From assembly GCF_900289195.1 (NCBI RefSeq), contig NZ_OMOH01000005.1, positions 120,001 through 152,000 of the forward strand: a DNA stretch of 32,000 nt. Direction: 5' to 3'. This DNA is from Propionibacterium ruminifibrarum. GTDB lineage: Bacteria > Actinomycetota > Actinomycetes > Propionibacteriales > Propionibacteriaceae. A program made the position numbers and the translations under genes. Under the pieces are notes generated by a model. That model saw only the letters and a list, made by a program, of their open reading frames with translations, made no database searches and had not been told where the DNA came from. This document shows, one piece after another, positions 1-32,000 of the stretch. Positions within the stretch are counted from its first letter, which is position 1. The number at the start of each line of letters is the position of its first letter.

Positions 1-2
1 TG

Positions 3-233
3 TGCCCATCGATGAGGGTGATGCCAAAGGCTGCGGTGATGGACGAGGCGATGAGAATCGCCCGCGGAATCTCGAAGAAATCCTTGAAGGCGCTGTTCCT
101 GCTTAAGCGTACACAGAGTGACAAGGTGTTCGAGGAATTGCCCGATCACATCGCCCGTGAAGCTGCGATGCAGCAGGAACTCTTCTCCGCTGAGCAGATT
201 GAGGTGGCGCGTGACAAGATCGCCAAGGCCTTC
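3..233 (+). other. C-terminal fragment of an enoyl-CoA hydratase/crotonase (ECH) domain
   Basis: EAMRIARGISKKSLKALFLLKRTQSDKVFEELPDHIAREAAMQQELF aligns without gaps to EAMSMASAIASHPRRTSVELKTHMLGSGIDDLLAAIDMEDAMHKRTF of the gene2 ECH domain. Shared positions are EAM, A, I, LK, L, I, E, AM and F. Confidence 0.7.
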
Positions 234-1160
234 CGGATACCGGATCGACTAGTCGAGGAGAACGGCCTGCACGCAGCCTGTGGTGCAGCCACCGTTCCAG
301 CGCCCACCGCTGCGGAGGATCGTTTGCCCGGTCAGACCGTGTCGTTGCGTCCGCTGACGGCCGCAGGGGGTCCTGTTCGGATGTCTACCCAGGGCGCGTC
401 CGGCGTTCGTCTGGCTGAACTGCGAGTTGCGAAGGCCGTCGCTGATGAGTCCCAGCAGCCGCGGACCGTCGAGGTACGACACATCGAATCGAATCAGGAA
501 GCTATGGGTCGGATTCTGGCGCAGATACTGCGCGAGGACTTGCGCGCTTTGGACTTGCGTCGCAGCGTGACTGACCTTGGGCTCGATTCTGTAGGGGCGA
601 TCGAATTTATCCAACAGGTTAACCAGCGTTTCCACTCGTCCTTCGATACCACTGTTATTTACCAGTACCCGAGGGCCATGGACTTGCTCGAGGGGATCGC
701 CGCCGCCGTGGCAGCAGACGACATCTCACTCGAACATGTCGATGTCGAACTGAACCGTGATGGCGTGCAGTCGATCTCCCCATCAAGGTCCGGTGCATCA
801 GCGAAACTTCAGGAGGACGGCATTCGAAACCATGTTTTGGAGGCGCTGCGCGTGGTGTTGCGTCTTGATGCTGACGAGGCTCTCGACCTTCGGAAGAACT
901 TCCAGGAACTGGGGCTGGACTCGGTGTCGGGCATCGAATTCGTCAGTGCCGTCAACACTAAGCTTGGAACTGCTATGCAGGCGGCCGATCTGTACGGCTA
1001 CGGCAGTGTCTGGGAGTTCATCACTGACATCACCGTTGCCGTACCGGCCGGTGACGCCCTGACCGCACAGCGTGACGACGAGATCGGTGCAGTGCTTGCG
1101 GCCCTCACTGATAATCGGCTCAGTATTGAGGGTGCTATCTCTGCGATGGAGCAAAAATGA
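3..1160 (+). CDS. Trans-AT PKS subunit, 3-prime end only (...ECH-ACP-ACP-docking tail); 5-prime partial
   Basis: The frame is open to the window edge, with no stop between nt 3 and the first ATG at 12. The first ~75 aa align ungapped with the C-terminus of the ECH domain of the next gene, so ATG 12 is not the real start. Two phosphopantetheine sites are present: LGLDSVGAIEF and LGLDSVSGIEF. The stop overlaps the next start (ATGA 1157-1160). Confidence 0.9.
   Translation, partial: CPSMRVMPKAAVMDEAMRIARGISKKSLKALFLLKRTQSDKVFEELPDHIAREAAMQQELFSAEQIEVARDKIAKAFRIPDRLVEENGLHAACGAATVPAPTAAEDRLPGQTVSLRPLTAAGGPVRMSTQGASGVRLAELRVAKAVADESQQPRTVEVRHIESNQEAMGRILAQILREDLRALDLRRSVTDLGLDSVGAIEFIQQVNQRFHSSFDTTVIYQYPRAMDLLEGIAAAVAADDISLEHVDVELNRDGVQSISPSRSGASAKLQEDGIRNHVLEALRVVLRLDADEALDLRKNFQELGLDSVSGIEFVSAVNTKLGTAMQAADLYGYGSVWEFITDITVAVPAGDALTAQRDDEIGAVLAALTDNRLSIEGAISAMEQK
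504..700 (+). other. ACP domain (first of tandem pair)
   Basis: VTDLGLDSVGAIEFIQQVNQRF; Ser codon 588-590. Confidence 0.88.
822..1035 (+). other. ACP domain (second of tandem pair)
   Basis: FQELGLDSVSGIEFVSAVNTKLG; Ser codon 921-923. Confidence 0.88.
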
Positions 1161-1246: not shown

Positions 1247-4200
1247 GCCGTCGCGCCCGAACCAGTTGGGGATCTTGATTCCTCACCGGGAACTGACGAG
1301 CCGATCGCCGTGATCGGAATGTCGGGGGTATTCCCGGACTCGCCTGACATCGATTCGTTGTGGGACCACCTCGTGAACCATCGAGACATGGTGCGCGAGG
1401 TGGAACCCTGGCGTTGGGACCCGAGTATCCACTATTCGCCCGAGCGTCCCGGTACCAGCGGCCCCGACTGCAAGTGGCAGGGCATGGTGCCTGATGTCGA
1501 CAGGTTCGATCCGCTGTTCTTCTCGATCTCCCCCAAGGAGGCCGAGGTTATGGATCCCCAACAGCGACTCCTCCTCCAGGAGGCCTGGCGGGCGGTCGAA
1601 GATGCGGGGTACACACCCACGCAACTGAGCAGTGGGACGTGTGGGGTGTACATCGGGGCCAATCACGGCGACTACGAGTTCAGGCTGGATCACAGTGCAT
1701 CCGAGCTGGCCGCACAGACGATGACAGGCTCACTGACATCAATCCTGGCAGCTCGGGTCTCGTACCACATGAACCTTACCGGCCCGAATCTTGCGATCGA
1801 TACCGCCTGCTCCTCATCACTAGTGGCACTGTGCCTGGCTGCGGAGGCGCTTCGCAAGGGAGAATGCGACACGGCTCTGGCTGGCGGCGTTGCGATCTTT
1901 ACAACGGAGCGCCTGTTCGTCATGGCTAGTCGAGGAGGCATGCTCTCCCGCACTGGGCACTGCCATGCCTTCGACGATGACGGCGATGGATTCGTCCCCT
2001 CGGAGGCCGTGGGCGTCGTGATGCTCAAACGTCTTGGCGATGCGCGCAGGGACGCGGACCATATCTACGGAGTGATTGAGGCCTTTGGGATGAACCATGA
2101 CGGACGCACCAACGGTCTGACCGCGCCCAGCCCCGTCTCCCAGTTCCGGCTCATCGACGGCATCTACGAGCGGTCAGGGATTGATCCGCAGTCCATCTCC
2201 TATGTAGAGTCTCACGGAACCGGTACCAAACTGGGCGACCCGATCGAGGTGAGCGCTCTCACCAAGGCATTCCGACGCCATACACAAGCGACTGGGTTCT
2301 GCGGGCTTGGTTCGGTTAAATCCAATCTCGGCCACTCGTTGTGCGCTTCAGGCGTTGTTTCCTTTATCAAGGTGATGTTGTGTCTTCAACATCAACAGCT
2401 TGTGGGCAATCTTAACTTCGTGCACCCCAACCAGCAGATTGATTTTGCCTCGAGTCCGTTCACGGTGGTCACTGACACTGTTGATTGGGAACCTGCGCCC
2501 GGTCAGCCCCGACGAGCTGGCATCAGCTCCTTCGGATTGAGCGGAACCAATGCCCACATAGTCGTGCGAGAGGCACCGGTCCAAGAGGCATCGGAGCCGG
2601 ATGTGACCTCCGTGGATGAAGTCATCATGATCAGTGCGAAACATCCTATGTCCCTGCGCGACAATGTTGTGGCGTTGAGGCGCTATCTCAGCGAGCACCC
2701 CGACCTGAACTGGCGCGACGTGGCATTCACCCTGGGGCAGGGGCGCATGGCGATGGACTATCGGATCGCTATCATCACCGACGGCATTGATGCATGCCTG
2801 GAGGCCTTGGCGCCCTTCGAGGACCAGGACATGGTGGACCGTGAGGCCGTGTGCGTTCAGGCAGGTGTCAAGGGCAGGCTGGGGGAGAACAACGGGCACG
2901 CCGGCCTTCTCGCGGAATTGCGCGTTGCACAAGGCGATCGACGTCATGCGCTCTTGGCGCAAGTGCAGCAGTTGGTGCTGGAGGGCCACGACCTGCCTGA
3001 CTGGGCCCAGATGCACGATGCTGGTGGGCCTCGTCCCCGGAGGATTCCGCTACCCACGTACCGGTTTCTCCAGGAACGTTGCTGGGTTGGACCCCGTTGC
3101 CCGGAACACTCCTCAGCGACGCGTGACATCGTTGTCCCGCCTCGGGCGAGCTACCTCGATGATCACAGGTTTGCGGGTGCACCGGTGGTTCCCGGGGCGC
3201 GTTGGCTCGACGTGATGGACCAGTTCTCCAGACAGGCCCAGGGCACACGTGGACTGTCTGAAATCCGCTGGGAAGCGCTCGTCGCTCCGGGCGAGACGGT
3301 ACATCTGACAACGGAGGACGAGTCCTCACACGTTGCGGTGCTCCTTGCGGACGGCACAGCGGTGGCCAAGGCCGCGACGATGAAGGGCGCTGTTGATCCT
3401 CATGGCGAGCTCGGAAGGATCCGCCTCCGGGACCGCGTTCCGCTACTCAAAGACAACCGGAGAGTCGACTCCGACGCCATCTATGACCGGTTCCTCGAAA
3501 TGGGAATGGACTATGGGCCCAGCTTCCGGGCCATCACTTCGCTGGAGGTCGGGGATGACACGGTGGTGGCCTATCTTAACCCAGTCCAAGTCGACGATTT
3601 GGAACCGCACAGTGTGCTGCAGCCACAAGTGATCGACGGCGTTTTCCAGGCGGTGTCGGGATTCAGGTTTGTGACCTATGAGGGACACAGTGACTGGTAC
3701 CTTCCGCATTCGCTGGAAGAGTTCATATTCAACGATGATGTCAATCGGGTCCGCACGGTGATCATCACCTCGTGTGAGCCAAGACCGGAGTTTCCGGGGA
3801 CCGTCGGTTTCGACATGGAGCTCTTTGATGACCATGGCCTACTGGTAGGCCGCATTCGCGACTACAGGGTTACGAGGATCGAGCGTCATTCTTCAGCTGG
3901 CGACGAAGATGAGTCGATCACTTTCATGGCTCCTGCGCCCATCATCCTTGACGACCCGCCCGTGCGGGCGGAGCAGCACCATCGGGTTGCTCTGCGGTGG
4001 CCGCCCAAGATCCGAGCTGTCACGGATGCACTGGCCGATGACAACGGGTCGAACGGCCTTGACGTTGTGATTCCGATCCCGAGCGCGGAGGCTTTTGATG
4101 AGGATCCATCGGCGATGACTGAAGCTGTAGTCAGGCCGGTCTTCGAACTCGTGCGTGGCATTATCGCCCAGACCACCGAGCAGGACATCCGCGTGGTGTG

Positions 4201-10798: not shown

Positions 10799-10801
10799 GA
10801 G
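10797..10801 (+). promoter_or_regulatory. Shine-Dalgarno AGGAG for gene4, overlapping the gene3 TAG stop
   Basis: In tAGGAGcgcaaaATG the spacing to ATG 10808 is 6 nt. Confidence 0.65.
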
Positions 10802-10807
10802 CGCAAA

Positions 10808-19800: not shown

Positions 19801-21607
19801 CGGCGCAGGGGGCGCAAATTCCCATCTCGTCCTTGAGGAGTACCTTCCGGCACCCGGTCGGGAAGCTACCCTGCGGGGACCTGGATTAGTCCCGTTCTCC
19901 GCACGCAATGACGCGGGGATGCGCAGATTGCTGACGGTCTGGGAGACCTTCCTTACTGGGTCGCAGGCGCGATCCGAACCGGGTTCGAGAATGCTGCCCG
20001 CGTTGTGCGGCGCACTGGCCGAGCTGCTCGGCCTGCCCGATGCCGGGGACGTGGATGCGGCACTGGCACTGGACGAGCTGGGCATGGACAGTACCTTGTG
20101 GGACGTCCTGGCGAGGCGCATCGAGGAGTTTTCGGGCCACAGGTGCAACTGGTCCGAGATAGCCGACTTGGATTCGGTTGGAGCAATTGCGGGCCACTTG
20201 GAGGAAAAGGCGATGATTTCGGCTGCTGAAGGGCTTGGTGTTCGCGAGGATCTGCCATCCTGCGGTGACATCGCCTTCACCATGCAGGTGGGCAGGGTCC
20301 ACCAGACGGGGGCCAGAGCAGCGGTGATCGCCGATACCCCTGCGGAGCTTCTGGCAGGTATCCGCCTTCTGCTAGCCGGTGAGACCAGCCCAACCGTCTT
20401 TGCGTCCGTGGCCGGGAGCCGACGTCGTGACGACAAGGCTGTCATCGCCGAGTGGTGCGCTGCACGTGATCTCCCGAAGATTGCGGAGGCCTATGTGAGT
20501 GGGAACTCCGTGGACTGGACGGGTGTGGCCGAAGGGCCCGTGCGCAGAGTCAGTCTTCCGCTGTACCCCTGCGAACGAAATGCCCTGTGGCTGGACCCCG
20601 GTCCTTCTTCGCCGGTCGTCGTCCCTCCGGATCCCACGCCGATTGTCGCCAACACCTCGACACTGGAGGCGGTGGGTTTCCGCATCCATCTCGATCCCGC
20701 GTGGATGGCTGTGTCCGACCACGTCATCCATGGCAGGGCTCTGCTCCCGGGAGCTGGATACCTGCAGTTCGCGAACCAGGTGGCGTCAGCCGCTGCCGAG
20801 CAGCCCGTGACAGTCATCCGCAACGTCGTGTGGCGGGTTCCCGTAGCTGTTCAGGCCGACATGGATCTGGACGTCGAGGTTCGGCGAGAGGGTCGGACCA
20901 TCGACTTGACGGTCCATGCTGGCAACAAGTCCTCGCCGCGTGCCTTCGAGGCGAGCCTCGAGGTGGGAGACCGACAGGCCGCCGAGCGCCACAGTGATGG
21001 GTGGTCGGTCGGCGGTCAGCCTTCCATCGAGCTGGAAGCCCGCGCCATCTATGAGCGATTCGCCCAGGTCGGTATGGCTTACGGGCAGGGCATGCAGACG
21101 GTGCTCAGGGCCCGCGTGAGCGAGGCGGAGCTGGTTGCAGATCTCGAACTGCCCGGTGGATGGCAGCCCAGCCACGGGATGGATCTGCATCCCGCGCTAC
21201 TGGACGGTGCATTCCAGGCCGTGGCGATAACGGGGATGCGGGGGCGGCAGGGGCAGCAGGCCATGATTCCCTTGGGAGCGGACGCTATCACCATCCATGC
21301 AGCAATCCCTGACACGTGCACTGTGCACGTCGTTCCCGCCGTAGCGCAGACCTTCGACGAGGAGCGCTCGCGACACTTGGCCAAGTACGACATTGTCGTC
21401 ATCGACGATTCCGGCCTGATCGTGGTCGAGATCGCCGGCTTCTCGGGAATGACCGTTGAGTCCTCCGGCGGCTCCGTCACGGGACCTGCCCATTCTGGCG
21501 GCGAGGACGACGACGTGCCCACCACGTTGGAGTTGCTGCAGCGCCTCGAGCGTGGAGAGATCCCTCAAAAACTTGTGATCAACGCACTGGACCATGGAGT
21601 GTTCTGA
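10808..21607 (+). CDS. Trans-AT polyketide synthase, 3599 aa: KS-flank-DH(variant)-KR-ACP-KS-DH-KR-ACP-KS-(ACP-like insert)-DH-dock
   Basis: Uninterrupted 10.8 kb ORF in the same reading frame as gene3, 9 nt after its TAG. AGGAG lies 6 nt upstream of the ATG. It contains two KS motif sets, three DH His motifs, two KR Rossmann motifs and two canonical ACPs plus one ACP-like unit. Confidence 0.95.
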   Translation: MVILRPTTSLQSQAERGVLSSHRDQGCTHTVEYPFVVSAKSSQALERSARRLIQWADSGPEGIELAWASYTTCQRRSRFAHRIVVFASSFSGLAEGLRSRMVDGGVPHRVEELPELGPEVVSELRSEDSRLRLEAQALVRGHIESGGTLDLASFFNAPDRVVVALPSYPFERTSLWVEQSAVEPGATPSSLPGVEYPLPGLRGATERRAGQECRVRTLHVDDFWLADHIVAQQHVFPGVGYIEFAVASSGAFALPGPHELRDIVYHSPLVVQGSDDEPELELHGVAAGTGSFRVCTRRSGEETVHCTGTILDGVADPTAFRAHPMNLDIDRMFGELGPRLDREACYAEIRGTGLMLGPSFNAIRTIAFNADRAMAEIVMPEKFVTDHEDFLLHPSIFDGALESVYWLAPAGATSLPVGIDRVGWFSRPLPRCFAYATRSVAGRPGEFSYDVTIYQPDGTRAVAVEGFRFKDLSSGPSHDSDVHSFTFEQVPVALSESPGLEGSLGLVNVTTRMWEALGRTGEVIGVDTPSCSALREGEQQEWMRNEVLPCRDVRAIVIDLTGCGVPGVDEPSAVMAIHDLLASLESHLITRAPTLPQVVLVEPDAPARLTRALRAFALTMTLESPQTKVTVLAADPRDVRFGSRVRRVLLAAPPGFVTWVGDQLMEPRVVPCSSAGTARLEEATGPGVYVITGGMGAIGSLLADRLACRGTNLMLWGRTPLDAERRARIDALAARGGRVEYRVVDLGDAHSVVECLDETERALGPIDGVFHCAGTTHDTMLSVPHVSQSRSVLEPKVAGAWNLRRALEERHARFLVLASSMASVTGNTGQSDYAFANGFMDGLAVDGSNDSRLHTVALDWSVWRDGGIHIEPNVLSMFATVFGITPLTNDQGLASIARSLGGGMQQVIVVAGDRERIKAHLGVAPQSVPPVRRQVSGPGTDLRAWVEQGLRSIIISSIKLSEDDFDPSRTFQEYGYTSLTMVDLANDINARFGTSITPALFFSATTFDKLVEHLVSAEEPSVLRSFKASGSFDAPTAVAAALPGDNRSADDAFAIVGLDVVMPGSRDIHQYWKHLIDCDCMTSQVPSDRWDWQALDADLARAGQDPVSHHGAFMAEVQDFDRSLFGISPREAKFMDPQQRLVLESIHRTIESSGRRVSDMAGSRTGIFIGVATADYSNVLQESAFPVDAYTSTGASHSVLVNRASFHFNWTGPSEPIDTACSSSLVAIHRACEAIRSGTCDAAVAGGVNVIVSPLLHTAFSRAGMLSPSGNCHSFDVAADGYVRGEGVGTLLIKPLSAATSDGDPVLAVIRGTAVNHGGHASSLTAPNPRMQAEVIRDAWRSGDLDSSGIGYIEAHGTGTRLGDPVEIDGLRQGFRSLSPTGELWSDKTCSIGTVKANIGHLEAAAGVAGIAKVVMMLREATIPGHPTLGELNPYLALEDSPFAIQRETSPWPNRGDGESRRAGVSSFGFGGANAHIALEEFRAEGVRPSDGAQFLVFSARSERALVEHMRNHAKALSGSVPPNLADVANTLRNGREQYSHRAVVLVQSGTGVDQVRRALEGESVVPGVDVLMSATFGDEEAVVVRNHPGAVLESSEQVVAFLRGETVEWKIAQDQLTRRAWLPPTPMERVRCWATDGVPSFAMTLGLGVTAADSSAAPQSVTNSLHPMIDECSDTESGAKRFAKTLRDTEFLVAHHVVNGRKVLPGTAYVELAHAVGRQLGMSQACTVSGLVWEQILEMKEPEIELIVDATPRPSQHGAFDLVVSSRSSVGTVRHCCCVVSDGIRSAPMTIDVPGRIQEADRELSREYCYGTLYPRIGFDYGPGFRVTSAIWSQAHGAVTELRLPEGIAGVDDHRFKVHPSLVDGAIRSIAAISEQRHSSTYVPFSVERVEVFAECPAHCFAVVTMGSGTSSRRIQSMLFNVSILDEDGNECVRFNNLMVRGLPRDYTNDDREFFLVPQWVEVPTARPVASSGAEPVLLIGTRNEGFASLSRGLVAGHPGSMAVLVVPQESRERRADDADKGIVEIARDANLLNDVANRCQGLSRVVVDLSGADSAEDLRGQGGLDLLAGVVRAAVSSAGARVQVTVLAPRPDSVTSLTPMAALGLARSMPAVVPNVHWTIAEVDASVSAEGALRRLDRMTNLPSGTRVRIMRDVTLMESMRALDDHELVAEGTGLPDGGVCVLSGGMGKIGQALARKLAADHHMRIAILGRSPLDDRREQLLAELRDMGGEGLYIPCDVSDRHRVATSVETIRSRWGQIDAVIHAAGVMSSRMFLDAPLTDIERVLAAKITGAVNLDAETAQDDLTQFIVFSSVSALVGDMGSGTYGAANALLDGFAEQRENEVRNGRRRGATLCIDWPMWADGGMPIPGGVDSFAENTGMSLLRTDSGIDLFEWITKLGRTRIVPLHGRPTPLRRLFRFTHATQRSAGIAAPVRAAKQQDDLMEVCIDHLKRLIAEASGYAVDEFDEDDDFEEFGIDSLMILSLNDKLAVDFPGLERTIFFEHNSISSLAAHLLEERRAAVEALAARREEPMMTSALPFVEDAALESTSVEVQASVIAQPRRATSVQSFEEAALFAAEEPIAIIGMNGRFPGADSIAEFWTNLCDGKDCVTEIPADRWDLKVFADKHARGESCIYSKWGAFLDDVAGFDPLLFKIPFVDARHIDPQERLFLENVFGTLEEAGYCAFPKDPVNVGVYVGVMYGHYQLLALERTLAGKETITSSTFASIANRTSYVFNFTGPSLAVDTMCSSSLTAIHLACEALRRGDCDMAVAGGVNVTVHPDKYRFLSSQHFLASDGRCHAFGEGGDGYVPGEGVASLLLKPLSKAERDGDHIHALIRGTAINHGGKTNGYTVTNPVAQSEAILSALEKSGVSARDISYIEAHGTGTELGDPIEIRGLTMAFSRSTHDRDFCWIGSVKSNIGHAEGAAGVVSVVKTVEQLRHHAVVPSLHSEVLNPQIAFAETPFRVPHKVEPWQPTGTIHDGVHGSLLAGVSSFGAGGANSHLVLEEYLPAPGREATLRGPGLVPFSARNDAGMRRLLTVWETFLTGSQARSEPGSRMLPALCGALAELLGLPDAGDVDAALALDELGMDSTLWDVLARRIEEFSGHRCNWSEIADLDSVGAIAGHLEEKAMISAAEGLGVREDLPSCGDIAFTMQVGRVHQTGARAAVIADTPAELLAGIRLLLAGETSPTVFASVAGSRRRDDKAVIAEWCAARDLPKIAEAYVSGNSVDWTGVAEGPVRRVSLPLYPCERNALWLDPGPSSPVVVPPDPTPIVANTSTLEAVGFRIHLDPAWMAVSDHVIHGRALLPGAGYLQFANQVASAAAEQPVTVIRNVVWRVPVAVQADMDLDVEVRREGRTIDLTVHAGNKSSPRAFEASLEVGDRQAAERHSDGWSVGGQPSIELEARAIYERFAQVGMAYGQGMQTVLRARVSEAELVADLELPGGWQPSHGMDLHPALLDGAFQAVAITGMRGRQGQQAMIPLGADAITIHAAIPDTCTVHVVPAVAQTFDEERSRHLAKYDIVVIDDSGLIVVEIAGFSGMTVESSGGSVTGPAHSGGEDDDVPTTLELLQRLERGEIPQKLVINALDHGVF
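10880..11343 (+). other. KS flanking subdomain belonging to KS3 but encoded on the next protein
   Basis: YPFVVSAKSSQALERSARRLIQW, ASYTTCQRRSRFAHRIVVFASS, ends LPSYPFERTSLWVEQ. This is the same layout as the segments that follow the other seven KS domains. Confidence 0.75.
11390..12230 (+). other. DH-like domain with variant motifs (DH1 of gene4)
   Basis: LADHIVAQQHVFPG (His codon 11489-11491; Gln where HxxxG has Gly; Pro kept). LMLGPSFNAI has Leu in place of the YGP Tyr. HPSIFDGALES has DxxxE instead of DxxxQ/H. Confidence 0.7.
12250..13570 (+). other. KR domain (boundaries approximate)
   Basis: VYVITGGMGAIGSLL from nt 12869; HCAGTTHDTML; SSMASVTGNTGQSDYAFAN. Confidence 0.85.
13631..13852 (+). 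other. ACP domain with atypical GYTS attachment motif
   Basis: FQEYGYTSLTMVDLANDINARFG; Ser codon 13739-13741. Thr replaces the usual Asp before the Ser. Confidence 0.75.
13955..15253 (+). other. KS4 ketosynthase domain
   Basis: DDAFAIVGLDVVMPG; DTACSSS (Cys codon 14468-14470); EAHGTGTRLGDPVE; KANIGHLEAAAG; GGANAHIALEEF. Confidence 0.95.
15254..15720 (+). other. KS C-terminal flanking subdomain (no AT)
   Basis: FLVFSARSERALVEHMRNH, LADVANTLRNGREQYSHR, ends PPTPMERVRCW. Confidence 0.7.
15803..16650 (+). other. DH domain (DH2 of gene4)
   Basis: HVVNGRKVLPG (HxxxGxxxxP, His codon 15896-15898); YGPGFRV; HPSLVDGAIRS (Asp kept, Arg at the Q/H position). Confidence 0.8.
16660..18050 (+). other. 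KR domain (boundaries approximate)
   Basis: VCVLSGGMGKIGQAL from nt 17351; IHAAGVMSSRMF; SSVSALVGDMGSGTYGAAN. Confidence 0.85.
18140..18358 (+). other. ACP domain
   Basis: FEEFGIDSLMILSLNDKLAVDF; Ser codon 18248-18250. Confidence 0.9.
18548..19843 (+). other. KS5 ketosynthase domain
   Basis: EEPIAIIGMNGRFPG; DTMCSSS (Cys codon 19058-19060); EAHGTGTELGDPIE; KSNIGHAEGAAG; GGANSHLVLEEY. Confidence 0.95.
19844..20600 (+). other. KS flanking subdomain of KS5, enlarged by an internal insertion
   Basis: LVPFSARNDAGMRRLLTVWETFL ... (insert) ... CGDIAFTMQVGRVHQTGARAAVIADTPAELLAGI ... LPLYPCERNALW. The two conserved blocks are 8-30 aa apart after the other seven KS domains but about 105 aa apart here. 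Confidence 0.75.
19994..20209 (+). other. ACP-like (carrier-protein-like) unit inserted inside the KS5 flanking subdomain
   Basis: LPALCGALAELLGLPDAGDVDAALALDELGMDSTLWDVLARRIEEFSGHRCNWSEIADLDSVGAIAGHLEEK follows the carrier-protein layout. That layout is helix, LG-x-P, D-x-x-x-x-F/L-x-x-LG-x-DS, helix, then a helix ending in hydrophobic-x-x-hydrophobic. The candidate Ser codon is 20090-20092. Confidence 0.5.
20650..21463 (+). other. DH domain (DH3, C-terminal domain of gene4)
   Basis: SDHVIHGRALLPG (HxxxGxxxxP, His codon 20720-20722); YGQGMQTV; HPALLDGAFQ (DxxxQ). Confidence 0.82.
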
Positions 21608-27600: not shown

Positions 27601-30131
27601 TTCGCAGGGCTGGCATCAACGCCTTCGGTGCTGGCGGCTCCAATGCCCATGTAGTTATCGAATCCTTCGATGAACCCGAATCGGCACGCCCGGCCGCAGG
27701 TGACGAACTCATCGTCCTGTCGGCGCGCGAGGCAGAACGTCTGCCGGTCGTTGCTGACGAACTGGCATATGCCCTCGAGCGTGATCCGGACGTCGACCTA
27801 CAACGGGTTGCCCACACGCTCAGGGTCGGGCGGGAGCCATTGGCCAGCAGGTTGGCTTTCGTTGCGCATGATGCTGACCATGCTGTTGCCGTGCTGAAGG
27901 CGATCTCTTCGGGGCGCGCCGTACCCGAAGTGATGACCTCGGAGGATCGCGATCCCACTGCGATGATAGTAGGTCAGGATCGGCTCAGTGCAGCCGCAGC
28001 GGCGTGGGTTTGCGGTGATCCGGTGGAATGGCCGGCCTGGGATGGTCGCTTTCCGTGCCGTGTGTCGCTCCCGGGGTACCCGTTCAGGCACGCCTCCTTC
28101 GTGCAGGAACGCACCATCGTGCGCCCAGCCTCCGCCGAGGAAGCCCGACGTGCGGAGGTGACCGTCAGGAACCGCCACGAGGACTTCCGCATCGATGAGG
28201 AACTGCGGCGCGTCGATGCGGTGAGCGCCAGCTACATGAAGGACTGGGAGCGGGTCACTCCCGAGCTCCAGCAGGCAGGCCGATGGTCGGAGCGACTGGT
28301 GGTCGTCTGTGCCCAGGAGTCCCACGACAGAACCGCGATTGCGGAGGCCCTTCGCGACGAAGGCGCCCGAGTCCTGGAAATCCATCCGGACGCGGCTCGG
28401 CATGGTGAGAAGGTCCCGGGCGATGTGACGGATGTGATCTGGATGCCCCAGAATGTCAATCCCTGTCACGACGATCCTTGGAGCCGCGAGGAACTGGAGT
28501 CGCACGACCGCAGTTTGGTTGACTTCCTCGCACTGCTCAAAACGATCGCCGCACGGGGCTCCGGTGCTCCGGTGTGCAACGTGCACATTGTCACCGATCG
28601 TGTGCAAGATCTTGACGGCGGCTGCGTACGAATGTGGGGCGCCGGGTCGAGCGCCATGCTCAGGTGCGTCACCCGTGAGCATGTGAACATCCGTGGCGTC
28701 GCCATCGACATGGATCTGTCATCCGGGGTCGAACCCGCGGACCTCGTCACATGGGTCGGGAGTATCCGCTGCACCACCGAGGTGGACGAGCTGATCGTGC
28801 GCGACGCACTGTGCCGACGACTCAGACTCTCACGTGTTGAGGTCCCGGCAGCGCGGGGCGATCTTGCAGCACCTGACAGCGTGCACGTCATCTTCGGAGG
28901 ACTCGGATCGCTCGGGTTCGAACTCGCCTGTCATTTGGTCAAGAACTGCGGCGCACGTGTGTGTCTCGTCGGGCGTTCTCCTATCGATCATGACAGGCGC
29001 CAACTGATGGACCGCCTGGGCGGCGAGGGCTCACGGGTGATGTACCGCAGGGCCGATGCCACCGATGAGTCTGCGGTCCGTAGTCTGCTCGACGACGTGA
29101 TGTCTGCATGGGGCCGGATCGATTGTCTAGTTCACACTGCCATGGTGTTCGGTGAGTCCACCGTAGAGGATCTCACCGACGAAGAGTTGCTTGACATGCT
29201 TCGTCCCAAGACGCGTATGGTCCAGGCGATCCTTCGGGCCAGCAGGGATATGGAAATTGAGCGGTTTATCGCCTTCTCCTCGTCGCAGGGCTTCTTGGGG
29301 GCGCCTCGCCGGGCTCATTACGCGGCTGCGTGTGCTGGCTTGATGAGTTTCCTCGATTCCATGCGTTCGCAGTTGAATATGACCATTCATCGGATCGACT
29401 GGGGTTACTGGGGCGCGGTGCGTGGTCGCCGCATTAGCCGTGAATATGCGGCGTTCCTCGACGCCCATAACATCAGGCCGATCTCTGTGCAGGAGGGAAT
29501 GGATGTGGTGGCTCGGGTGGTGACCAACGAAATGCCGGCGCTCACCGTCCTTACCGTTGGCGATTTGGTCCGTTCGACGATGTCGATCCTTGATAACGCG
29601 CAGCCCCGGGCGTGGAATCGACAGCGGGCAGCCAAGGCCATTCACAACGCCCCCGCACGACCGATGCCCGAGACTGATGAAGAGGCCCATGAAGGCTCGG
29701 CCCAGACGTTCGAGGAGGTCCGCTCGGCCCTTATGAGCGACCTGGCCCAGACGATCTCGTCCTCGGCATCCGAGATCGACCCGTCCCAGTCCTTCATGGA
29801 CATTGGCTTGGACTCGATCTCGGGGCTCAAATTCGTCCGCAATGTCAACTCGCACCGGGGTTATCGCCTCCCGGACACGGTCGTCTTCGAGTACCCGAGC
29901 ATCGACGCCCTCGCTTGGCACATCATTGAGGCGCCGCCGATCATCGAATCGGTTGGGCCAGCGACCGACGAAACCGTGTGCGAGAAACAGATCCAAACTC
30001 CGGACGTCGCGCCACCTGCCAACTCGGCAGCGATGGACGAGGCAGAAGAGGATTTCCTTACCTTGTTGAGGAAACTCGAGTCTAACCAGATCACCCCCGA
30101 ACAGGCCATCGGCAAGGGAGAAGTCAAGTGA
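21609..30131 (+). CDS. Trans-AT polyketide synthase, ~2840 aa: dock-KR-ACP-KS-DH(degenerate)-ACP-KS-KR-ACP-dock
   Basis: Uninterrupted 8.5 kb ORF. The track starts it at ATG 21594, a 14-nt overlap with gene4. I prefer ATG 21609, which is 1 nt after the gene4 TGA, has GGAG 21596-21599 nine nt upstream, and gives MTRQEIVAAVAAGRM... in register with the other N-terminal docking motifs. It has two KS motif sets, two KR motifs and three ACP sites. Confidence 0.93.
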   Translation: MTRQEIVAAVAAGRMTAAEAYRLLGEEATPAGASDEPREDLLHGVRIARRCWLPLAAQLPAADTGATVIITDGTDSQSMMLNELVAGEVLLELPESAADPVSSDAFDTYWTEHVQDRVRGCDHLVIVFRDPTPSMANRDTVLLFRVFQVLAHLRRTTSLAIDVVVDRQDEEALAWAMACDSFLACVRLERPLLDTRVVVVETQASLSRVVALGAELRSRGVAARLARTDASGSALLTAQVTKPGQFVEDEFLEEVDFLVTGGTGGLARVLAGGLLKRGAGHVTLCGRRGPEDLDADLVQLIERNRDRVCYVRWDPADDEDLVGLACDAVRANHRLVILHAAGVRNDAFLVKQNLKDFLTTAVPKVSMTRVVMEAARSIPNSTVVLFSSVTSLFGNIGQCAYGFANGHMDGCAVAARESSGGELRVLSVNWPLWDEGGMQLDEGARRMMSATTGMEPLPTAVGLEFLIRALYDGWQGDEALLYGDLDKLAGLLGANEAPPDRAVAREAHAPAMGAPAVPPRSCSSISAHELHRRACSFLVEVVSGVTEIPQSDIDIHAAFDQFGLDSIVAMRIGDELEANFSGLSKTLLFEYQNITDLASYFVDAHYDELLTVLGIGGSSLDDMVEQPPAAPTPSVKADRPEVQHPAVAIIGIAGRYPGATSLDQFWENLVHGVDSVREIPAERWDNEQIYDTRKGQLGRTNSRWGGFLDGIDQFDPRLFRINAREAMIMDPQERIFLETAWTAVQDAGYKVSDLHGCRVGVFVGAMYSEYQMLPACVRGRNLPHTSLHSSIANRVSYYLDLNGPSVAMDTMCSSSLVAIHYGARSILDGEATMAIAGGVNLSLTPDKYLFLAQGNFLSSDGRCRAFGEGGDGYVPGEGVGAVLLKSLEHALADGDHIYGVIRGSAVNHDGKTSGYTVPSPQAQADVISAALEQSGLEPARVSYVEAHGTGTSLGDPIEISGLKCAYGGASLGRIRAIGSVKSNIGHTESAAGIASLTKVLLQMKHHELVPSLHATRLNPMIDFDDAGFTVQRELGAWHSDGAPRVAGISCFGAGGTNCHMIVEEPAATPVRTMDPERVFVPFSSTSDEQLRALLEKYVTFLASDDARAMTLVDIAHTMTSGRDRMNAAVIIFASSIEELRERIMGFLTTGHTDANVLYRPSVEQTDDVGFLLEGEQGDDMVAHLIEQRSMEQLARVWLLGRPVDSRRLFPMARRVSLPTHVFDHDSYWLPGDGSAATESALCGVLDRNESDFDGIRFTSFIDTASEVKSAYIAPDAIVDPMVAPQLAHDGFQQLMGDEPDSFENLRLIVAPSGPAPCSFTVRADRGGAMTLLEVTDGDGAVVFQTAAGTTAESGSTATSRGGEPVLSWPGDMPDPGSIPLVTVLRACMAACTTDQSGLLGVGAVRIFSSFPIIVVRQMPALDGGDGIDLEFGSATGDVVALATNVVVTPFTLQDASMAVDDGGGQEAPVDRPPDVRAFILEVASELFGVPSSGIDEDMPFDEYGIDSVLIGKFVEAIRTRFPSMPETSFFDHTTVRSLTTYLSSLEDTEPVVAAIPAAPTAVTRSRPSVPMLASVLPDGAGGNDDEPIAIIGMSGVFPEAADLGEYWDNLRAGRESISLVPADRWDYRAWFDPETDIPTPGKIYAPWGGFIDDPYGFDHAFFNITPADARVIDPQERMLLETIWHTLEDAGRTRSDLMASGGDDLAENVGVFVGSTNHTYEFWGVEEWARGNAVATNSSPWSLANRLSYFFNFSGPSMPVDTACSSGLTALHLAVGALRRRECTSAVVAGVNLYLHPMKYVAMCQMKMLSPTGHLSAFGADADGFVPGEGVAAVLLKPISRALADGDRVRAVIRASELNHGGRSNGYTVPNGVAQTRLLQRAWRRCGVSPSTIGYLEMHGTGTRLGDPIEVEAATRAMRDATDRQGFCAMGSVKSNIGHLESCAGLAALVKVVQQMEHGVILPTINAHSVNPRLKLEHSPFVLAHEEMTWQPDERSGVRRAGINAFGAGGSNAHVVIESFDEPESARPAAGDELIVLSAREAERLPVVADELAYALERDPDVDLQRVAHTLRVGREPLASRLAFVAHDADHAVAVLKAISSGRAVPEVMTSEDRDPTAMIVGQDRLSAAAAAWVCGDPVEWPAWDGRFPCRVSLPGYPFRHASFVQERTIVRPASAEEARRAEVTVRNRHEDFRIDEELRRVDAVSASYMKDWERVTPELQQAGRWSERLVVVCAQESHDRTAIAEALRDEGARVLEIHPDAARHGEKVPGDVTDVIWMPQNVNPCHDDPWSREELESHDRSLVDFLALLKTIAARGSGAPVCNVHIVTDRVQDLDGGCVRMWGAGSSAMLRCVTREHVNIRGVAIDMDLSSGVEPADLVTWVGSIRCTTEVDELIVRDALCRRLRLSRVEVPAARGDLAAPDSVHVIFGGLGSLGFELACHLVKNCGARVCLVGRSPIDHDRRQLMDRLGGEGSRVMYRRADATDESAVRSLLDDVMSAWGRIDCLVHTAMVFGESTVEDLTDEELLDMLRPKTRMVQAILRASRDMEIERFIAFSSSQGFLGAPRRAHYAAACAGLMSFLDSMRSQLNMTIHRIDWGYWGAVRGRRISREYAAFLDAHNIRPISVQEGMDVVARVVTNEMPALTVLTVGDLVRSTMSILDNAQPRAWNRQRAAKAIHNAPARPMPETDEEAHEGSAQTFEEVRSALMSDLAQTISSSASEIDPSQSFMDIGLDSISGLKFVRNVNSHRGYRLPDTVVFEYPSIDALAWHIIEAPPIIESVGPATDETVCEKQIQTPDVAPPANSAAMDEAEEDFLTLLRKLESNQITPEQAIGKGEVK
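21710..23090 (+). other. KR domain at the N-terminus of gene5; completes the module begun by KS5-DH3 (boundaries approximate)
   Basis: FLVTGGTGGLARVL from nt 22377; LHAAGVRNDAFL; SSVTSLFGNIGQCAYGFAN. Confidence 0.85.
23193..23420 (+). other. ACP domain
   Basis: FDQFGLDSIVAMRIGDELEANF; Ser codon 23304-23306. Confidence 0.9.
23538..24803 (+). other. KS6 ketosynthase domain
   Basis: HPAVAIIGIAGRYPG; DTMCSSS (Cys codon 24042-24044); EAHGTGTSLGDPIE; KSNIGHTESAAG; GGTNCHMIVEEP. Confidence 0.95.
24804..25310 (+). other. KS C-terminal flanking subdomain (no AT)
   Basis: VFVPFSSTSDEQLRALLEKY, LVDIAHTMTSGRDRMNAAVIIFASS, ends LPTHVFDHDSYW. Confidence 0.7.
25328..25970 (+). other. Degenerate DH-like region without catalytic His or Asp
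   Basis: It opens like a trans-AT DH (LCGVLDRNESDFDGIRFTSFIDTASE). APDAIVDPMVAPQLAHDGFQQL sits where xDHxVxGxxxLPG is expected. There is no YGP motif, and IPLVTVLRACMAAC sits where HPxLLDxxxQ is expected. At about 215 aa it is shorter than the other three DH domains. Confidence 0.45.
26031..26243 (+). other. ACP domain
   Basis: FDEYGIDSVLIGKFVEAIRTRF; Ser codon 26127-26129. Confidence 0.9.
26361..27668 (+). other. KS7 ketosynthase domain
   Basis: DEPIAIIGMSGVFPEA; DTACSSG (Cys codon 26898-26900); EMHGTGTRLGDPIE; KSNIGHLESCAG; GGSNAHVVIESF. Confidence 0.95.
27669..28107 (+). other. KS C-terminal flanking subdomain (no AT)
   Basis: ELIVLSAREAERLPVVADEL, LQRVAHTLRVGREPLASRLAFVAHD, ends LPGYPFRHASF. 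Confidence 0.7.
28110..29600 (+). other. KR domain (boundaries approximate)
   Basis: VHVIFGGLGSLGFEL from nt 28881; VHTAMVFGESTV; SSSQGFLGAPRRAHYAAAC. Confidence 0.8.
29709..29927 (+). other. ACP domain (sequence type resembles the tandem beta-branching ACPs)
   Basis: FMDIGLDSISGLKFVRNVNSHRGYRLPDTVVFEYP; Ser codon 29814-29816. Confidence 0.88.
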
Positions 30132-30220
30132 GTACGGATTTTCGTCATGAGCTGATGGACATGGTGTATAGAGGAGAGATCAGCGCTGAACAGGCTGCTG
30201 CTATGTTGCCACGGGCCGGG
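30045..30220 (+). other. Putative docking pair at the gene5/gene6 junction
   Basis: Tail DFLTLLRKLESNQITPEQAIGKGE and head RHELMDMVYRGEISAEQAAAMLPRAG. Confidence 0.55.
30116..30120 (+). promoter_or_regulatory. Shine-Dalgarno-like GGGAG for gene6
   Basis: Lies 7 nt upstream of GTG 30128, which overlaps the gene5 TGA (GTGA). Confidence 0.55.
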
Positions 30221-32000
30221 AAACCATTGCCAGCGAGAAGCGGCGAGGACGTCGCGGTCGTCGGGATGTCGGGACGTTTTCCGGGTGCAGACGATGTCGA
30301 CGAATTCTGGCGGCTGATCGAGCAGCAACGCTCCGCCATCGTGGATGTGCGTTCCCGATGGCCGCAGATCGCGGAACTCCTCGACTCCGCCTCCCGCAGT
30401 GGGCACGCCTACAGCCACTGGGGCGCCCTGATGAACAGCATCACCGACTTCGATCCGGCGTTCTTCGATCTGTCGCCTCGGCAGGCGCAGTTGATGGAAC
30501 CGCGCCAGCGGTTGTTGCTCATGGAGGCCTGGCGTGCGATCGAGGAAGCTGGGTACTCTAGGGCTGAACTCGACGGTCGCAATTGCGGCGTATTCATCGG
30601 CTGTGAGGGTAGCTCGGACTATTTCCACGACATGCGGTTCGACCGCATGGACGGAAATGTCGTGCTAGGACACTCGAATTCCGTACTGGCGGCGAGGCTC
30701 TCATACTTCATGAATCTCACCGGCCCAACGATGAGCATCGACACGGCATGCTCGTCCTCATTGGTGGCCATCCACTTGGCGTGTCGTTCGCTTCTCGACG
30801 GGACATGCGACATGGCCCTCACCGGTGGGGTCACGGTCATGTATTCCATGGCCGATCAACTGCTCCAGTCAGACATGGGCATGCTGTCGCCGACCGGACG
30901 ATGCGCGACTTTCGACGTGGGCGCGGATGGCTTCGTGCCTGCAGAGGCAGCAGCCGTGCTGGTGCTGAAGAGGTTGTCGGACGCGGTCCGTGACGACGAC
31001 CACATCCATGGGATCATCCGCGCCACCGCCATCAACCAGGACGGCAAGACGAACGGCATCACAGCCCCCAGCGCACTGTCCCAGGAACGCTTGATCAGGG
31101 ATGCATGGCGGTCGGGACACGCAGACCTGTCGACAATGAGGTACATCGAGGCACATGGGACGGGAACGCCGCTGGGTGATCCGATCGAAGTCGACGCCTT
31201 GGTGCGGACCTATGGAGGACTGAGCGCCTCGGGGCGGATCGGTGTCGGGTCGGTCAAGACGAACGTTGGTCATGCCGGGGCAGCTTCGGGTGTCATGTCC
31301 ATGGTCAAGGTCCTCATGGCGATGAGGCACGGTGACATCCCCGCGAGCATCAATCTCACAGAGGTCAACCCCCGTATTCGACTGGAAGGCTCCAGTCTGC
31401 ACATTGTCAGAGACCTGGAGCCCCTGTACCTGGATGATGGGGAGGCTACCGTCGCGGTCAGCTCCTTCGGCTACAGCGGGACGAACGCCCACATCATCGT
31501 CGAGTCAGCGAGACATCTTGCCACCCCCGTGAACGGGGGTGGTCTGGAGGCTCCCGATTTGCCGTTGACGTTGTTTCTTTCCGCAGCCTCTGAGCAGGCA
31601 CTTCTGGACCTGTGCTCCGCGTATGACCGGTGGTTGGCGACGCACGGTGAGGGTTTAGATCTTCTCCAGCTGTGCATCCAGTCCTTGGTCACTAGGACCC
31701 AGATGCGGTACCGAGTGGCTGTCGAGTTCACCAACCTCGCCGAGTTGCAGGACGGCCTCCGGTGCGTTGACGGCTCTATGATCACCAGGGCCATGCGACA
31801 CGTCGACGCCCAGGACCTAGTCATTGTCGACCGACTGATCGCCGCTATGAAGCCGCCGAAGGGGGATCGCCACGGGCTGGCACGCCTGATGAACCGGCTG
31901 GTCACGACTTGGTCCCACGGAGTGGATGGTGACTACTTGGTGTTGCGTGCCTACACCGGGCGTCGGCTCAGTCTGCCCACTTACCGGTTCTCGCACGCGA
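30128..32000 (+). CDS. Trans-AT polyketide synthase, N-terminal part only (dock-KS-flank...); 3-prime partial, not in the supplied ORF track
   Basis: My own translation from GTG 30128 (GTGA overlap with the gene5 stop; GGGAG 7 nt upstream) gives VSTDFRHELMDMVYRGEISAEQAAAML...EDVAVVGMSGRFPGADDVDEFW...DTACSSSLVA...EAHGTGTPLGDPIE...KTNVGHAGAASG...GTNAHIIVESA...LSLPTYRFSHA. There is no stop up to nt 32000. Confidence 0.9.
   Translation, partial: MSTDFRHELMDMVYRGEISAEQAAAMLPRAGKPLPARSGEDVAVVGMSGRFPGADDVDEFWRLIEQQRSAIVDVRSRWPQIAELLDSASRSGHAYSHWGALMNSITDFDPAFFDLSPRQAQLMEPRQRLLLMEAWRAIEEAGYSRAELDGRNCGVFIGCEGSSDYFHDMRFDRMDGNVVLGHSNSVLAARLSYFMNLTGPTMSIDTACSSSLVAIHLACRSLLDGTCDMALTGGVTVMYSMADQLLQSDMGMLSPTGRCATFDVGADGFVPAEAAAVLVLKRLSDAVRDDDHIHGIIRATAINQDGKTNGITAPSALSQERLIRDAWRSGHADLSTMRYIEAHGTGTPLGDPIEVDALVRTYGGLSASGRIGVGSVKTNVGHAGAASGVMSMVKVLMAMRHGDIPASINLTEVNPRIRLEGSSLHIVRDLEPLYLDDGEATVAVSSFGYSGTNAHIIVESARHLATPVNGGGLEAPDLPLTLFLSAASEQALLDLCSAYDRWLATHGEGLDLLQLCIQSLVTRTQMRYRVAVEFTNLAELQDGLRCVDGSMITRAMRHVDAQDLVIVDRLIAAMKPPKGDRHGLARLMNRLVTTWSHGVDGDYLVLRAYTGRRLSLPTYRFSHA
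30245..31510 (+). other. KS8 ketosynthase domain
   Basis: EDVAVVGMSGRFPGADD; DTACSSS (Cys codon 30749-30751); EAHGTGTPLGDPIE; KTNVGHAGAASG; GTNAHIIVESA. Confidence 0.93.
31511..32000 (+). other. KS C-terminal flanking subdomain (no AT), running to the window end
   Basis: LTLFLSAASEQALLDLCSAY, LCIQSLVTRTQMRYRVAVEFTN, LSLPTYRFSHA. Confidence 0.7.

Follow-up and report, generated by a model that had tools for sequence, protein, structure and literature searches.

The nearest characterized counterparts of the locus analyzed here are mostly polyketide synthases (PKSs) of the trans-AT class. The bacillaene synthase of Bacillus subtilis (PksJ/L/M/N/R plus the ECH2 enzyme PksI) is likewise a trans-AT system, and its product is a beta-methyl-branched polyene, the kind of chain predicted here. 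Among solved structures, PksI matches our in-line ECH domains best (1.5e-56), the ACP and KS of PksL are among the top matches of our tandem ACPs and KS3, and the flanking subdomains superpose. In the bacillaene system, however, ECH2 is free-standing, NRPS modules are present, and one branch is made, whereas our locus carries ECH2 in-line twice and shows no NRPS parts; the module order is not collinear, and identity is at the level of domain families only. Module 3 of mupirocin MmpA and module 5 of virginiamycin M VirA (KS-ACP-ACP) have, like our locus, tandem ACPs on which the HMG-synthase cassette acts. The MmpA structure 2L22 aligns as a didomain across both ACPs of our protein P3 (1e-13), and VirA ACP5a and ACP5b are the second and fourth best matches. 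The P3 arrangement differs from these modules in that ECH2 is fused between KS and ACPs and the module is spread over two proteins. The ECH2 of curacin CurF is, like ours, embedded in a megasynthase beside a beta-branching ACP cluster (3.7e-41), but it comes from a cis-AT cyanobacterial hybrid PKS/NRPS. Overall, the KS domains with their flanks are closest, among solved structures, to the bimodule core of the orphan cluster BGC11 of Brevibacillus brevis (7ZMA/7ZSK), which is of the same KS-flank-DH-KR type; its flanks lack the ACP-fold insert described below, the insert residues being unmatched there, and the cluster is unrelated.

The sole collinear relative that we found lies on a metagenome contig, Logan SRR23724703_5358 (L163). 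Over 3555 aa, its protein P0125 is collinear with our protein P4 (48% identity) and keeps the P3/P4 split between KS and flank-DH (gap of ∼10 nt), the domain order of P4, and a Ser-containing ACP-fold insert. This contig has a GC content of 69%, versus 61% here, and is known as a 12.6-kb fragment only.

Architecture of the locus

We analyzed a window of 32,000 nucleotides whose sequence corresponds to proteins WP_119715698-700, WP_182858629/30, and WP_147385394 of the published Propionibacterium ruminifibrarum genome, where their names are generic. The window spans ∼60% of a trans-AT PKS of seven genes, 13 KS domains, and ∼17,600 aa. These genes are co-directional, overlap or almost abut, and encode proteins of 3499, 1790, 2443, 768, 3599, 2840, and 2657 aa (P0 to P6), with P0 and P1 supplying further PKS sequence 5' of the window. 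It is very probable, in our judgment, that the window is the center of a functional multisubunit trans-AT (AT-less) modular PKS of this species.

Domain identities and order were mapped with Pfam and in-cluster HMMs (Table 1). By protein, the order in the window is ...ECH-ACP-ACP; KS-DH-KR-ACP-KS-ECH; ACP-ACP-KS; DH-KR-ACP-KS-DH-KR-ACP-KS-DH; KR-ACP-KS-DH0-ACP-KS-KR-ACP; KS.... This map bears out the first-pass annotation, which had described an AT-less multimodular type I PKS with eight KS domains in the window accompanied by KR, DH, ACP, and ECH, and modules split over proteins (KS-ECH from ACP-ACP, KS from flank-DH, and KS-DH from KR-ACP). The gene junctions are also as it had given them, namely, an ATGA overlap, 3 nt, 9 nt, 1 nt (or a 14-nt overlap from the upstream ATG of P5), and GTGA, and a GGAG-like Shine-Dalgarno sequence lies 7 to 13 nt 5' of every start at these junctions.

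Table 1. Coordinates of genes and domains in the window
Feature	Position	Strand	Details
P1 3' end	1..1160	+	full protein 1790 aa, WP_119715698.1, KR-ACP-KS-ECH-ACP-ACP
P1 ECH2 tail	1-191	+	
P1 tandem beta-branching ACPs	504-698, 831-1031	+	Ser codons 588, 921
P2 gene	1157..8488	+	2443 aa, WP_119715699.1
P2 KS1	1298-2419	+	Cys 1808
P2 KS1 flanking subdomain	2420-3076	+	
P2 DH	3095-3886	+	divergent, His codon 3164
P2 KR	4469-5023	+	B-type, Asp present
P2 ACP	5291-5485	+	
P2 KS2	5642-6760	+	Cys 6152; then flanking subdomain
P2 ECH2	7622-8299	+	
P3 gene	8492..10798	+	768 aa, WP_119715700.1; N-terminal docking helix
P3 tandem ACPs	8675-8872, 8963-9160	+	Ser codons 8762, 9050
P3 KS3	9533-10636	+	Cys 10025; KS core is direct protein end
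P4 gene	10808..21607	+	3599 aa; RefSeq model WP_182858629.1 begins 119 aa later
P4 flanking subdomain of KS3	10808-11347	+	
P4 DH	11402-12229	+	
P4 KR	12866-13402	+	B
P4 ACP	13652-13849	+	
P4 KS4	13958-15094	+	Cys 14468
P4 DH	15809-16645	+	
P4 KR	17348-17902	+	A-like, without Asp
P4 ACP	18161-18355	+	
P4 KS5	18551-19669	+	Cys 19058
P4 KS5 flanking subdomain	19670-20638	+	
ACP-fold domain inside KS5 flank	20000..20200	+	Pfam PP-binding E=5e-6
P4 DH	20639-21457	+	
P5 gene	21609..30131	+	2840 aa from ATG 21609 (WP_182858630.1); 2845 aa from ATG 21594; docking helix
P5 KR	22371-22913	+	B
P5 ACP	23217-23411	+	
P5 KS6	23541-24650	+	Cys 24042; then flanking subdomain
DH0, degenerate DH-like segment	25281..26039	+	dead DH remnant between KS6 flank and ACP
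P5 ACP	26040-26234	+	
P5 KS7	26364-27509	+	Cys 26898
P5 KR	28878-29417	+	A-like, without Asp
P5 ACP	29727-29924	+	
P6 5' part	30128..32000	+	2657 aa, WP_147385394.1; reaches window-equivalent 38101; docking helix
P6 KS8	30245-31357	+	Cys 30749; then flanking subdomain
P6 past window			DH-KR-ACP-KS9-ACP-alpha/beta-hydrolase

Each of the eight KS domains in the window keeps the Cys, HGTGT, and xNxGH elements (Pfam KS E-values of 1e-77 to 1e-175). The Cys codons lie exactly where they had been placed earlier, within a D[TS]xCSS motif, and an independent DNA repeat search recovered eight copies of the HGTGT-coding segment. Pairwise identity among the KS domains is 33 to 56%, and their grouping follows the type of the upstream module. 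KS1 and KS3, both after branch modules, are reciprocal best in-cluster matches, and KS2, KS5, and KS6, all after DH-KR modules, group at 52 to 56% identity. KS3 is nearest to the bacillaene module-6 KS of PksL (5ERF; 385 bits versus ≤335 bits for other single-KS chains).

No integrated AT was found, as the first-pass annotation had predicted: PF00698 gave no match to the whole proteins at E≤0.01. Pfam likewise returned no MT or ER match and no PF00975 TE match. Every KS is followed by an AT-less flanking subdomain (Pfam RhiE-like_linker and CurL-like_PKS_C) that matches solved trans-AT KS structures by sequence and fold (7ZMA from Brevibacillus, PksL 5ERF, PksJ 4NA1, MgsF 4TKT, and OzmN). The earlier description of these flanks as short needs one correction, in that an ACP-fold domain is inserted in the flank of KS5. 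An LPxYxF-like ending had been claimed for all; the strict motif is present in four of the eight (KS1, KS3, KS7, and KS8), and the rest carry variants such as LPTHVF and LPLYPC. After the KS6 flank, the ACP does not come at once; a decayed DH-like segment precedes it.

The insert in the KS5 flank has an ACP fold and sits where cis-AT PKSs have their AT. It keeps a GMDS motif with Ser3095 (codon 20090), the phosphopantetheine-site Ser that most relatives lack, and it is shared with the 48%-identical P4 homologue. In PDB sequence comparisons, it is closest to PKS ACPs, whose Ser aligns with its own, and the AF2 model (pLDDT of 85 to 94) matches ACPs in Foldseek with TM scores of 0.72 to 0.84. 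ACP-fold inserts in KS flanking subdomains are a widespread variant; we found no description of them in the literature, and they may merit separate study.

Predicted beta-branching and chain assembly

The in-line ECH domains are of the ECH2 type, PksI/CurF-type decarboxylases, on the basis of the matches given above and of NCBIfam PRK07110 (score of 246 bits versus a cutoff of 215). In the domain map, KS-ECH is followed by ACP-ACP in a module without KR. In the PDB, the top five matches to the tandem ACPs all belong to the beta-branching type (MmpA 2L22, VirA ACP5a/5b, PksL, and CurA), the PksL ACP being that of crystal 5ENY, which holds the module-6 KS together with the ACP of the preceding module. 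The in-line ECH2 and the tandem ACPs together indicate beta-branching. At Ser+6, the position of the Trp flag of beta-branching ACPs, we found Phe in both P1 ACPs, a departure from Trp shared with the actinobacterial Vir system, and Ile or Val in the P3 ACPs, in contrast to the mupirocin and virginiamycin modules. Because the flag is Phe in the virginiamycin beta-methylation ACPs and variable elsewhere (PMC10006238), the non-Trp residues weaken the beta-branch assignment without excluding it. For Ile or Val at the P3 position, we found no precedent in the literature consulted.

The missing partner functions had been expected outside the window. This was borne out in part: further PKS sequence (P0 and P1) lies upstream, and the release domain is a C-terminal alpha/beta-hydrolase of P6 located 6 kb past the window. 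Neither a discrete AT nor an HCS cassette was found within 10 kb downstream. No HMG-CoA synthase, ECH1, KS0, or donor ACP was found in the 58 kb of the locus read.

The module previously read simply as "keto" holds what its sequence marks as a dead DH (DH0), overlooked in that reading. DH0 keeps the N-terminal hotdog motif LDRNESDFDGIRFTSF; the catalytic Asp-His pair has become Ala-Tyr (Tyr1271, codon 25419), and the C-terminal half is decayed. Neither Pfam nor a profile of the cluster's own DHs matched this segment, and its weak BLAST matches fell on the DH N-termini of other trans-AT PKSs in eight of eight cases. The P6 DH has a 4-residue deletion in HxxxGxxxxP; this domain and the divergent DH of P2 (647-910) could have noncanonical roles.

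The domain and motif map fits the proposed order of chemistry, namely, branch, olefin, branch, olefin (hydroxyl or olefin in the first-pass annotation), olefin, olefin, keto, and hydroxyl. By analogy with established trans-AT PKS enzymology, a free-standing AT encoded elsewhere would deliver malonyl units to each ACP, subunits would associate via short terminal helical docking regions, and P3 and P4 would be joined via a KS core whose flanking subdomain is on the next protein. In step 1, the beta-keto group on the P1 tandem ACPs would be converted to a beta-alkyl branch, started by an HMG-CoA-synthase cassette in trans and completed by the in-line PksI/CurF-type ECH2 decarboxylase. KS1-DH-KR-ACP would then give an enoyl unit (step 2), and KS2-ECH2 with ACP-ACP of the next protein a second beta-branch (step 3). 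Further enoyl units would come from KS3 with DH-KR-ACP across the protein boundary (step 4), from KS4-DH-KR-ACP (step 5), and from KS5-DH with KR-ACP, again across a boundary (step 6); the step 5 double bond may be Z, since the KR lacks the B-type Asp. At KS6-DH0-ACP, the beta-keto group would stay unreduced (step 7), and KS7-KR-ACP would leave a beta-hydroxyl (step 8). Past the window, KS8-DH-KR-ACP and then KS9-ACP would act before the C-terminal alpha/beta-hydrolase frees the chain. The synthase is expected to yield a long polyene acid or lactone that bears beta-methyl (or exomethylene) branches and no alpha-methyl groups, and that may be further modified by an adjacent GT-like protein and an acyl-CoA ligase. 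The product structure, the double-bond geometry, and the roles of these two proteins we infer throughout.

Alternative explanations

Could the enzyme load its own modules, as a cis-AT PKS or in another way, through ATs too divergent to recognize, for instance in unassigned post-KS stretches? Some post-KS regions do exceed a minimal flank: there are an extra 250 aa after KS6, an insert of ∼100 aa after KS5, and, outside the window, an insert of ∼440 aa that follows the first KS of P0 and has no Pfam match. However, the KS6 segment aligns with DH N-termini, the KS5 insert folds as an ACP, and most KS-to-next-domain linkers, at ∼215 aa, have no room for an AT of ∼300 aa and align end to end with solved AT-less flanks of trans-AT KS domains. 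PF00698 remained silent on the isolated interdomain gaps even at E≤1, and no GHSxG motif occurs in the proteins, so hidden ATs are barely credible. An already described pathway, for example of the bacillaene, kalimantacin, or virginiamycin type, which would mean that the cluster is not novel, is improbable. Single domains do have their nearest solved relatives in the bacillaene, mupirocin, virginiamycin, and curacin systems, but these similarities are at the domain-family level only (E of 1e-11 to 1e-114) and not collinear. The best KS matches reach at most 50% identity among 5.8 billion proteins, and the best match among 185,579 species-representative genomes is at 45%. In the literature we found no paper on the cluster and none that links a trans-AT product to P. 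ruminifibrarum or to Propionibacteria in general. The earlier suggestion of a possibly undescribed polyketide is not contradicted, no collinear relative above ∼48% identity having been found.

A decaying, nonfunctional relic would be in keeping with the dead DH remnant in one module, with several metagenome assemblies that break off where the first PKS gene starts or close to that point, with a P0 frameshift in one JGI contig (L166), and with the AT or HCS genes not being seen in the DNA read. Against this, open reading frames run uninterrupted for up to 3599 aa, the Cys-His-His triad is intact in 13 of 13 KS domains, and the ACP serines and the catalytic residues of DH and KR are conserved. 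The locus is 99.7 to 100% identical in contigs of at least eight samples, and identity of at least 99.7% is retained in the isolate and in MAG/metagenome contigs from many samples. Strain differences comprise 33 synonymous versus 19 nonsynonymous changes (dN/dS of roughly 0.2), which indicates intact genes under purifying selection. We give the relic explanation very little credence and retain the reading of a functional trans-AT PKS.

Meaning for a rumen anaerobe

Trans-AT PKSs have yielded a wealth of bioactive polyketides, and little of the chemistry of strictly host-associated anaerobes has been explored. The cluster is real, large, intact, and uncharacterized, yet it is an ordinary representative of a well-known enzyme class and leaves the understanding of how trans-AT enzymes work unchanged. 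Its 13 KS domains, ∼17,600 aa, and conservation of at least 99.7% across many ruminant-gut samples make it a concrete, culturable target (strain JV5) for a new rumen metabolite and a moderate genome-mining lead. A product kept near-invariant across cattle- and goat-gut populations would suggest a role in rumen competition. Our judgment is evenly divided on the joint reading, in which the cluster would make a structurally new, doubly beta-branched polyene, the KS5-flank ACP fold could be a working extra carrier or a dock for the trans-acting AT, and the polyene would both mediate rumen competition and be the first trans-AT product of the Propionibacteriaceae and of a rumen anaerobe.

Gene organization and extent of the assembly line

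The six window proteins (P1 to P6) have the domain content of a polyketide synthase (PKS) assembly line, with intact catalytic residues, modules split between proteins and no acyltransferase (AT). Pfam placed ketoacyl-synt/Ketoacyl-synt_C in five of the six ORFs with E-values from 1e-77 to 1e-175, found the KR, PS-DH, PP-binding and ECH_1 families as well, and detected no Acyl_transf_1, methyltransferase, enoylreductase or thioesterase family in any of the six. Could AT domains be hidden between the recognized domains? This possibility was rejected, as no AT emerged when the gaps between domains were scanned in isolation at E ≤ 1, and a motif scan of the window proteins revealed no GHSxG motif. 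The first-pass annotation, which had described a trans-AT PKS with eight ketosynthase (KS) domains and no AT, MT, ER or TE, is correct. The KS active-site Cys codons that it had listed (1808, 6152, 10025, 14468, 19058, 24042, 26898 and 30749) were recovered exactly by motif scan, and both catalytic histidines are kept in all eight domains. Gene junctions are also as it had described them (ATGA, 3 nt, 9 nt, 1 nt or a 14-nt overlap, and GTGA), with a GGAG-like ribosome-binding site upstream of every start. Antisense ORFs of 200 to 360 aa exist in the window; because the plus strand is fully covered by high-scoring PKS domains, we read them as probable by-products of GC-rich coding sequence.

Features of the window and its downstream side. 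P1 to P6 are abutting ORFs; their RefSeq entries, all from Propionibacterium ruminifibrarum, were obtained by exact-sequence look-up.
Feature	Coordinates	Strand	RefSeq protein	Content
P1	..1160	+	WP_119715698.1	...ECH-ACP-ACP (in window)
P2	1157-8488	+	WP_119715699.1	KS1-DH-KR-ACP-KS2-ECH
P3	8492-10798	+	WP_119715700.1	ACP-ACP-KS3
P4	10808-21607	+	WP_182858629.1	flank-DH-KR-ACP-KS4-DH-KR-ACP-KS5-DH
P5	21594/21609-30131	+	WP_182858630.1	KR-ACP-KS6-DH0-ACP-KS7-KR-ACP
P6	30128 onward	+	WP_147385394.1	KS8... (in window)
ACP-fold insert	20000-20200			~100 aa, inside KS5 flank 19670-20638
DH0 (putative dead DH remnant)	25281-26039			between KS6 flank and ACP; BLAST positions and alignment
707-aa protein	38115-40238 (window-equivalent; L089 10001-12124)			

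The whole line comprises 13 KS domains and ~17,600 aa, with 8 KS domains in the window. Upstream of the window, P1 extends to its full 1790 aa (KR-ACP-KS-ECH-ACP-ACP) and is preceded by P0, a 3499-aa protein with the order KS-DH-KR-ACP-KS-DH-ACP-KS. The KS that opens P0 is already at about residue 8, so this protein must be preceded by a loader carrying an ACP or by additional modules. Beyond the window, P6 continues as DH-KR-ACP-KS-ACP and ends in an alpha/beta-hydrolase, which matches Abhydrolase_1, resembles the PcaD enol-lactonase family below the family cut-off, and is probably the release domain. The earlier expectation that the missing partners lie outside the window thus held for the release domain, whereas neither a discrete AT nor an HCS cassette was found in the 10 kb downstream. 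P6 is followed by a protein of 707 aa, in which a C-terminal GT1 domain is weakly recognized, and then by an acyl-CoA ligase. Among 5.8 billion proteins, the 707-aa protein had three relatives at E ≤ 1e-5: itself and two proteins fused to ABC-ATPase domains. The housekeeping genes beyond the ligase (MazG, enolase, DivIC, DUF501 and Ppx) mark the 3' border of the cluster.

Catalytic residues and module assignments

The ECH domains are ECH2 decarboxylases; they score above the cut-off of NCBIfam PRK07110 and, among solved structures, match PksI (1.5e-56) and CurF ECH2 (3.7e-41) best. For the tandem ACPs of P3, the top five solved matches are all beta-branching ACPs (MmpA 2L22, VirA ACP5a/5b, PksL and CurA), with MmpA 2L22 aligning across both. 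P1 has Phe, and P3 has Ile/Val, at the "Trp flag" position Ser+6; this position is described as variable and is reported to be occupied by Phe in virginiamycin beta-methylation ACPs (PMC10006238). All four window DHs keep the HxxxG/QxxxxP His and the downstream Asp, and on these grounds a role as pyran synthase or enoyl isomerase was rejected. The B-type Asp is present in three of the five window KRs and missing in those at 17348-17902 and 28878-29417.

What is the 250-aa segment between the KS6 flank and the ACP, overlooked in the first-pass annotation? All eight of its weak BLAST matches fell on the DH N-termini of other trans-AT PKSs. Alignment revealed the conserved HPLLxRNxSDxxGxRF block, with Ala-Tyr in place of the catalytic Asp-His, and decay over the C-terminal half. 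HMM and hhalign comparisons with the cluster's own DHs were negative, Pfam made no detection in the segment, and a single-sequence AlphaFold model of it had a pLDDT of 38. The assignment is based on the consistency of the BLAST positions and on the alignment, from which the segment appears to be a dead DH (DH0). With DH0 dead, the keto product that had been predicted for the KS6 module stands.

In trans-AT PKSs, the sequence of a KS tracks its incoming substrate. KS1 and KS3, each located after a branch module, are mutual best matches within the cluster, and KS2, KS5 and KS6, each located after a DH-KR module, form one group at 52 to 56% identity. These relationships fit the substrate rule. 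KS3 is nearest to the bacillaene module-6 KS (PksL 5ERF), which was crystallized with the ACP of the preceding module (5ENY); the tandem ACPs in turn have this bacillaene ACP among their best matches.

A split ketosynthase and ACP-fold inserts in the flanks

P3 ends straight after the KS core (…GTNCHMVVREAL and then stop; window 10636-10808), and the entire KS3 flanking subdomain is on P4. Because core and flank are on separate proteins, the contact between them must be noncovalent. The only collinear relative found, a 12.6-kb metagenome contig of 69% GC (Logan SRR23724703_5358), encodes a 3555-aa protein 48% identical to P4. It conserves the split, including its ~10-nt gap, and like P4 carries a Ser-containing ACP-fold insert. 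The RefSeq model of P4 (3480 aa) begins 119 aa after the ATG at 10808 (window 10808-11164). The longer N-terminus, MV[IM]LRP...YPFVVSAK, is conserved in the 48%-identical homologue and makes up the first half of the KS3 flank; the start in the RefSeq model is hence probably misplaced.

The ACP-fold insert in the KS5 flank, which had also been overlooked, is located where cis-AT PKSs have their AT. It matches Pfam PP-binding (E = 5e-6), its best PDB sequence matches are PKS ACPs with the serine aligned, and the serine of its GMDS motif (Ser3095) is retained. AlphaFold, run on an alignment of 20 sequences, modelled the insert with a pLDDT of 85 to 94, and in Foldseek its target-normalized TM-scores against ACPs were 0.72 to 0.84. 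Foldseek matched the two halves of the surrounding flank to trans-AT KS structures. No solved trans-AT KS structure that was matched has a counterpart of the insert. An equivalent insert follows the second KS of P0, and a degenerate form follows KS9, the second KS of P6. A ~440-aa insert at the same site in the flank of the first P0 KS (residues ~310-748 of the fragment, L164 1-10011) had no match at E ≤ 1 with Pfam sequence profiles.

Is the insert particular to this cluster? It occurs in 43 of 45 representative megasynthases (those with an alignment spanning the whole query), on ~29% of their KSs and ahead of modules of several different types. Its serine is mostly lost in these proteins (GFDP and similar motifs). 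Our search of the literature on flanking-subdomain insertions found no paper describing an ACP-fold insert.

Conservation, relatives and proposed working

The P1 to P6 entries are all on one 291,488-bp contig of P. ruminifibrarum JV5, on which SPF68544-SPF68550 / PROPJV5_1532 are located, and bear only generic names ("SDR family oxidoreductase," "type I polyketide synthase," "alpha/beta fold hydrolase," etc.). A 59-kb contig from run ERR1938110 is 100% identical to the window, and contigs from two Propionibacteriaceae MAGs and several ENA/JGI metagenomes are 99.7 to 99.96% identical. The intact ORFs, the excess of synonymous over nonsynonymous between-strain differences (33 versus 19) and the retention of the locus across many samples indicate that the PKS genes look functional. 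Recent module duplication was rejected, as no long DNA repeats were found (at most 86% identity over 44 nt). One JGI contig has a frameshift in P0. The upstream ends of four other contigs (L167, L168, L001 and L003) break within ~35 to 65 bp of the P0 start or ~2.3 kb upstream, and these breaks in independent assemblies suggest that a repeat, or sequence that varies between strains, borders the PKS genes on their 5' side.

By analogy with established trans-AT PKS enzymology, malonate would be loaded by a free-standing AT and the subunits would dock through helical termini. hSxEEAxxLL-like motifs are present at the N-termini of P1, P2, P3, P5 and P6, and P2 has a weak SHOCT-like Pfam match. Two beta-branches would be installed by an HCS cassette together with the in-line ECH2 domains. 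The predicted order of window modules is branch, olefin, branch, olefin, olefin, olefin, keto and hydroxyl, and the terminal hydrolase would free a beta-branched polyene acid or lactone.

Could the cluster be identical to a described pathway? Among 5.8 billion proteins, the best KS matches reached at most 50% identity; the matches listed were all ≤1089 aa or ≤1397 aa, and the megasynthases themselves were not among them. The best match in 185,579 species-representative genomes was 45%, and a P0 fragment had relatives at no more than 57% identity among metagenome contigs. Literature searches (P. ruminifibrarum, the accessions, and Propionibacteria or rumen with trans-AT) returned no paper connecting a trans-AT product with either this species or its family. 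That the cluster belongs to a pathway already described is unlikely. The enzyme class is well known; this is an uncharacterized cluster in an already sequenced genome. The homologue in a second, 69%-GC organism makes the PKS part of a small, so far unnamed family, and the cluster is moderately interesting as a genome-mining target.
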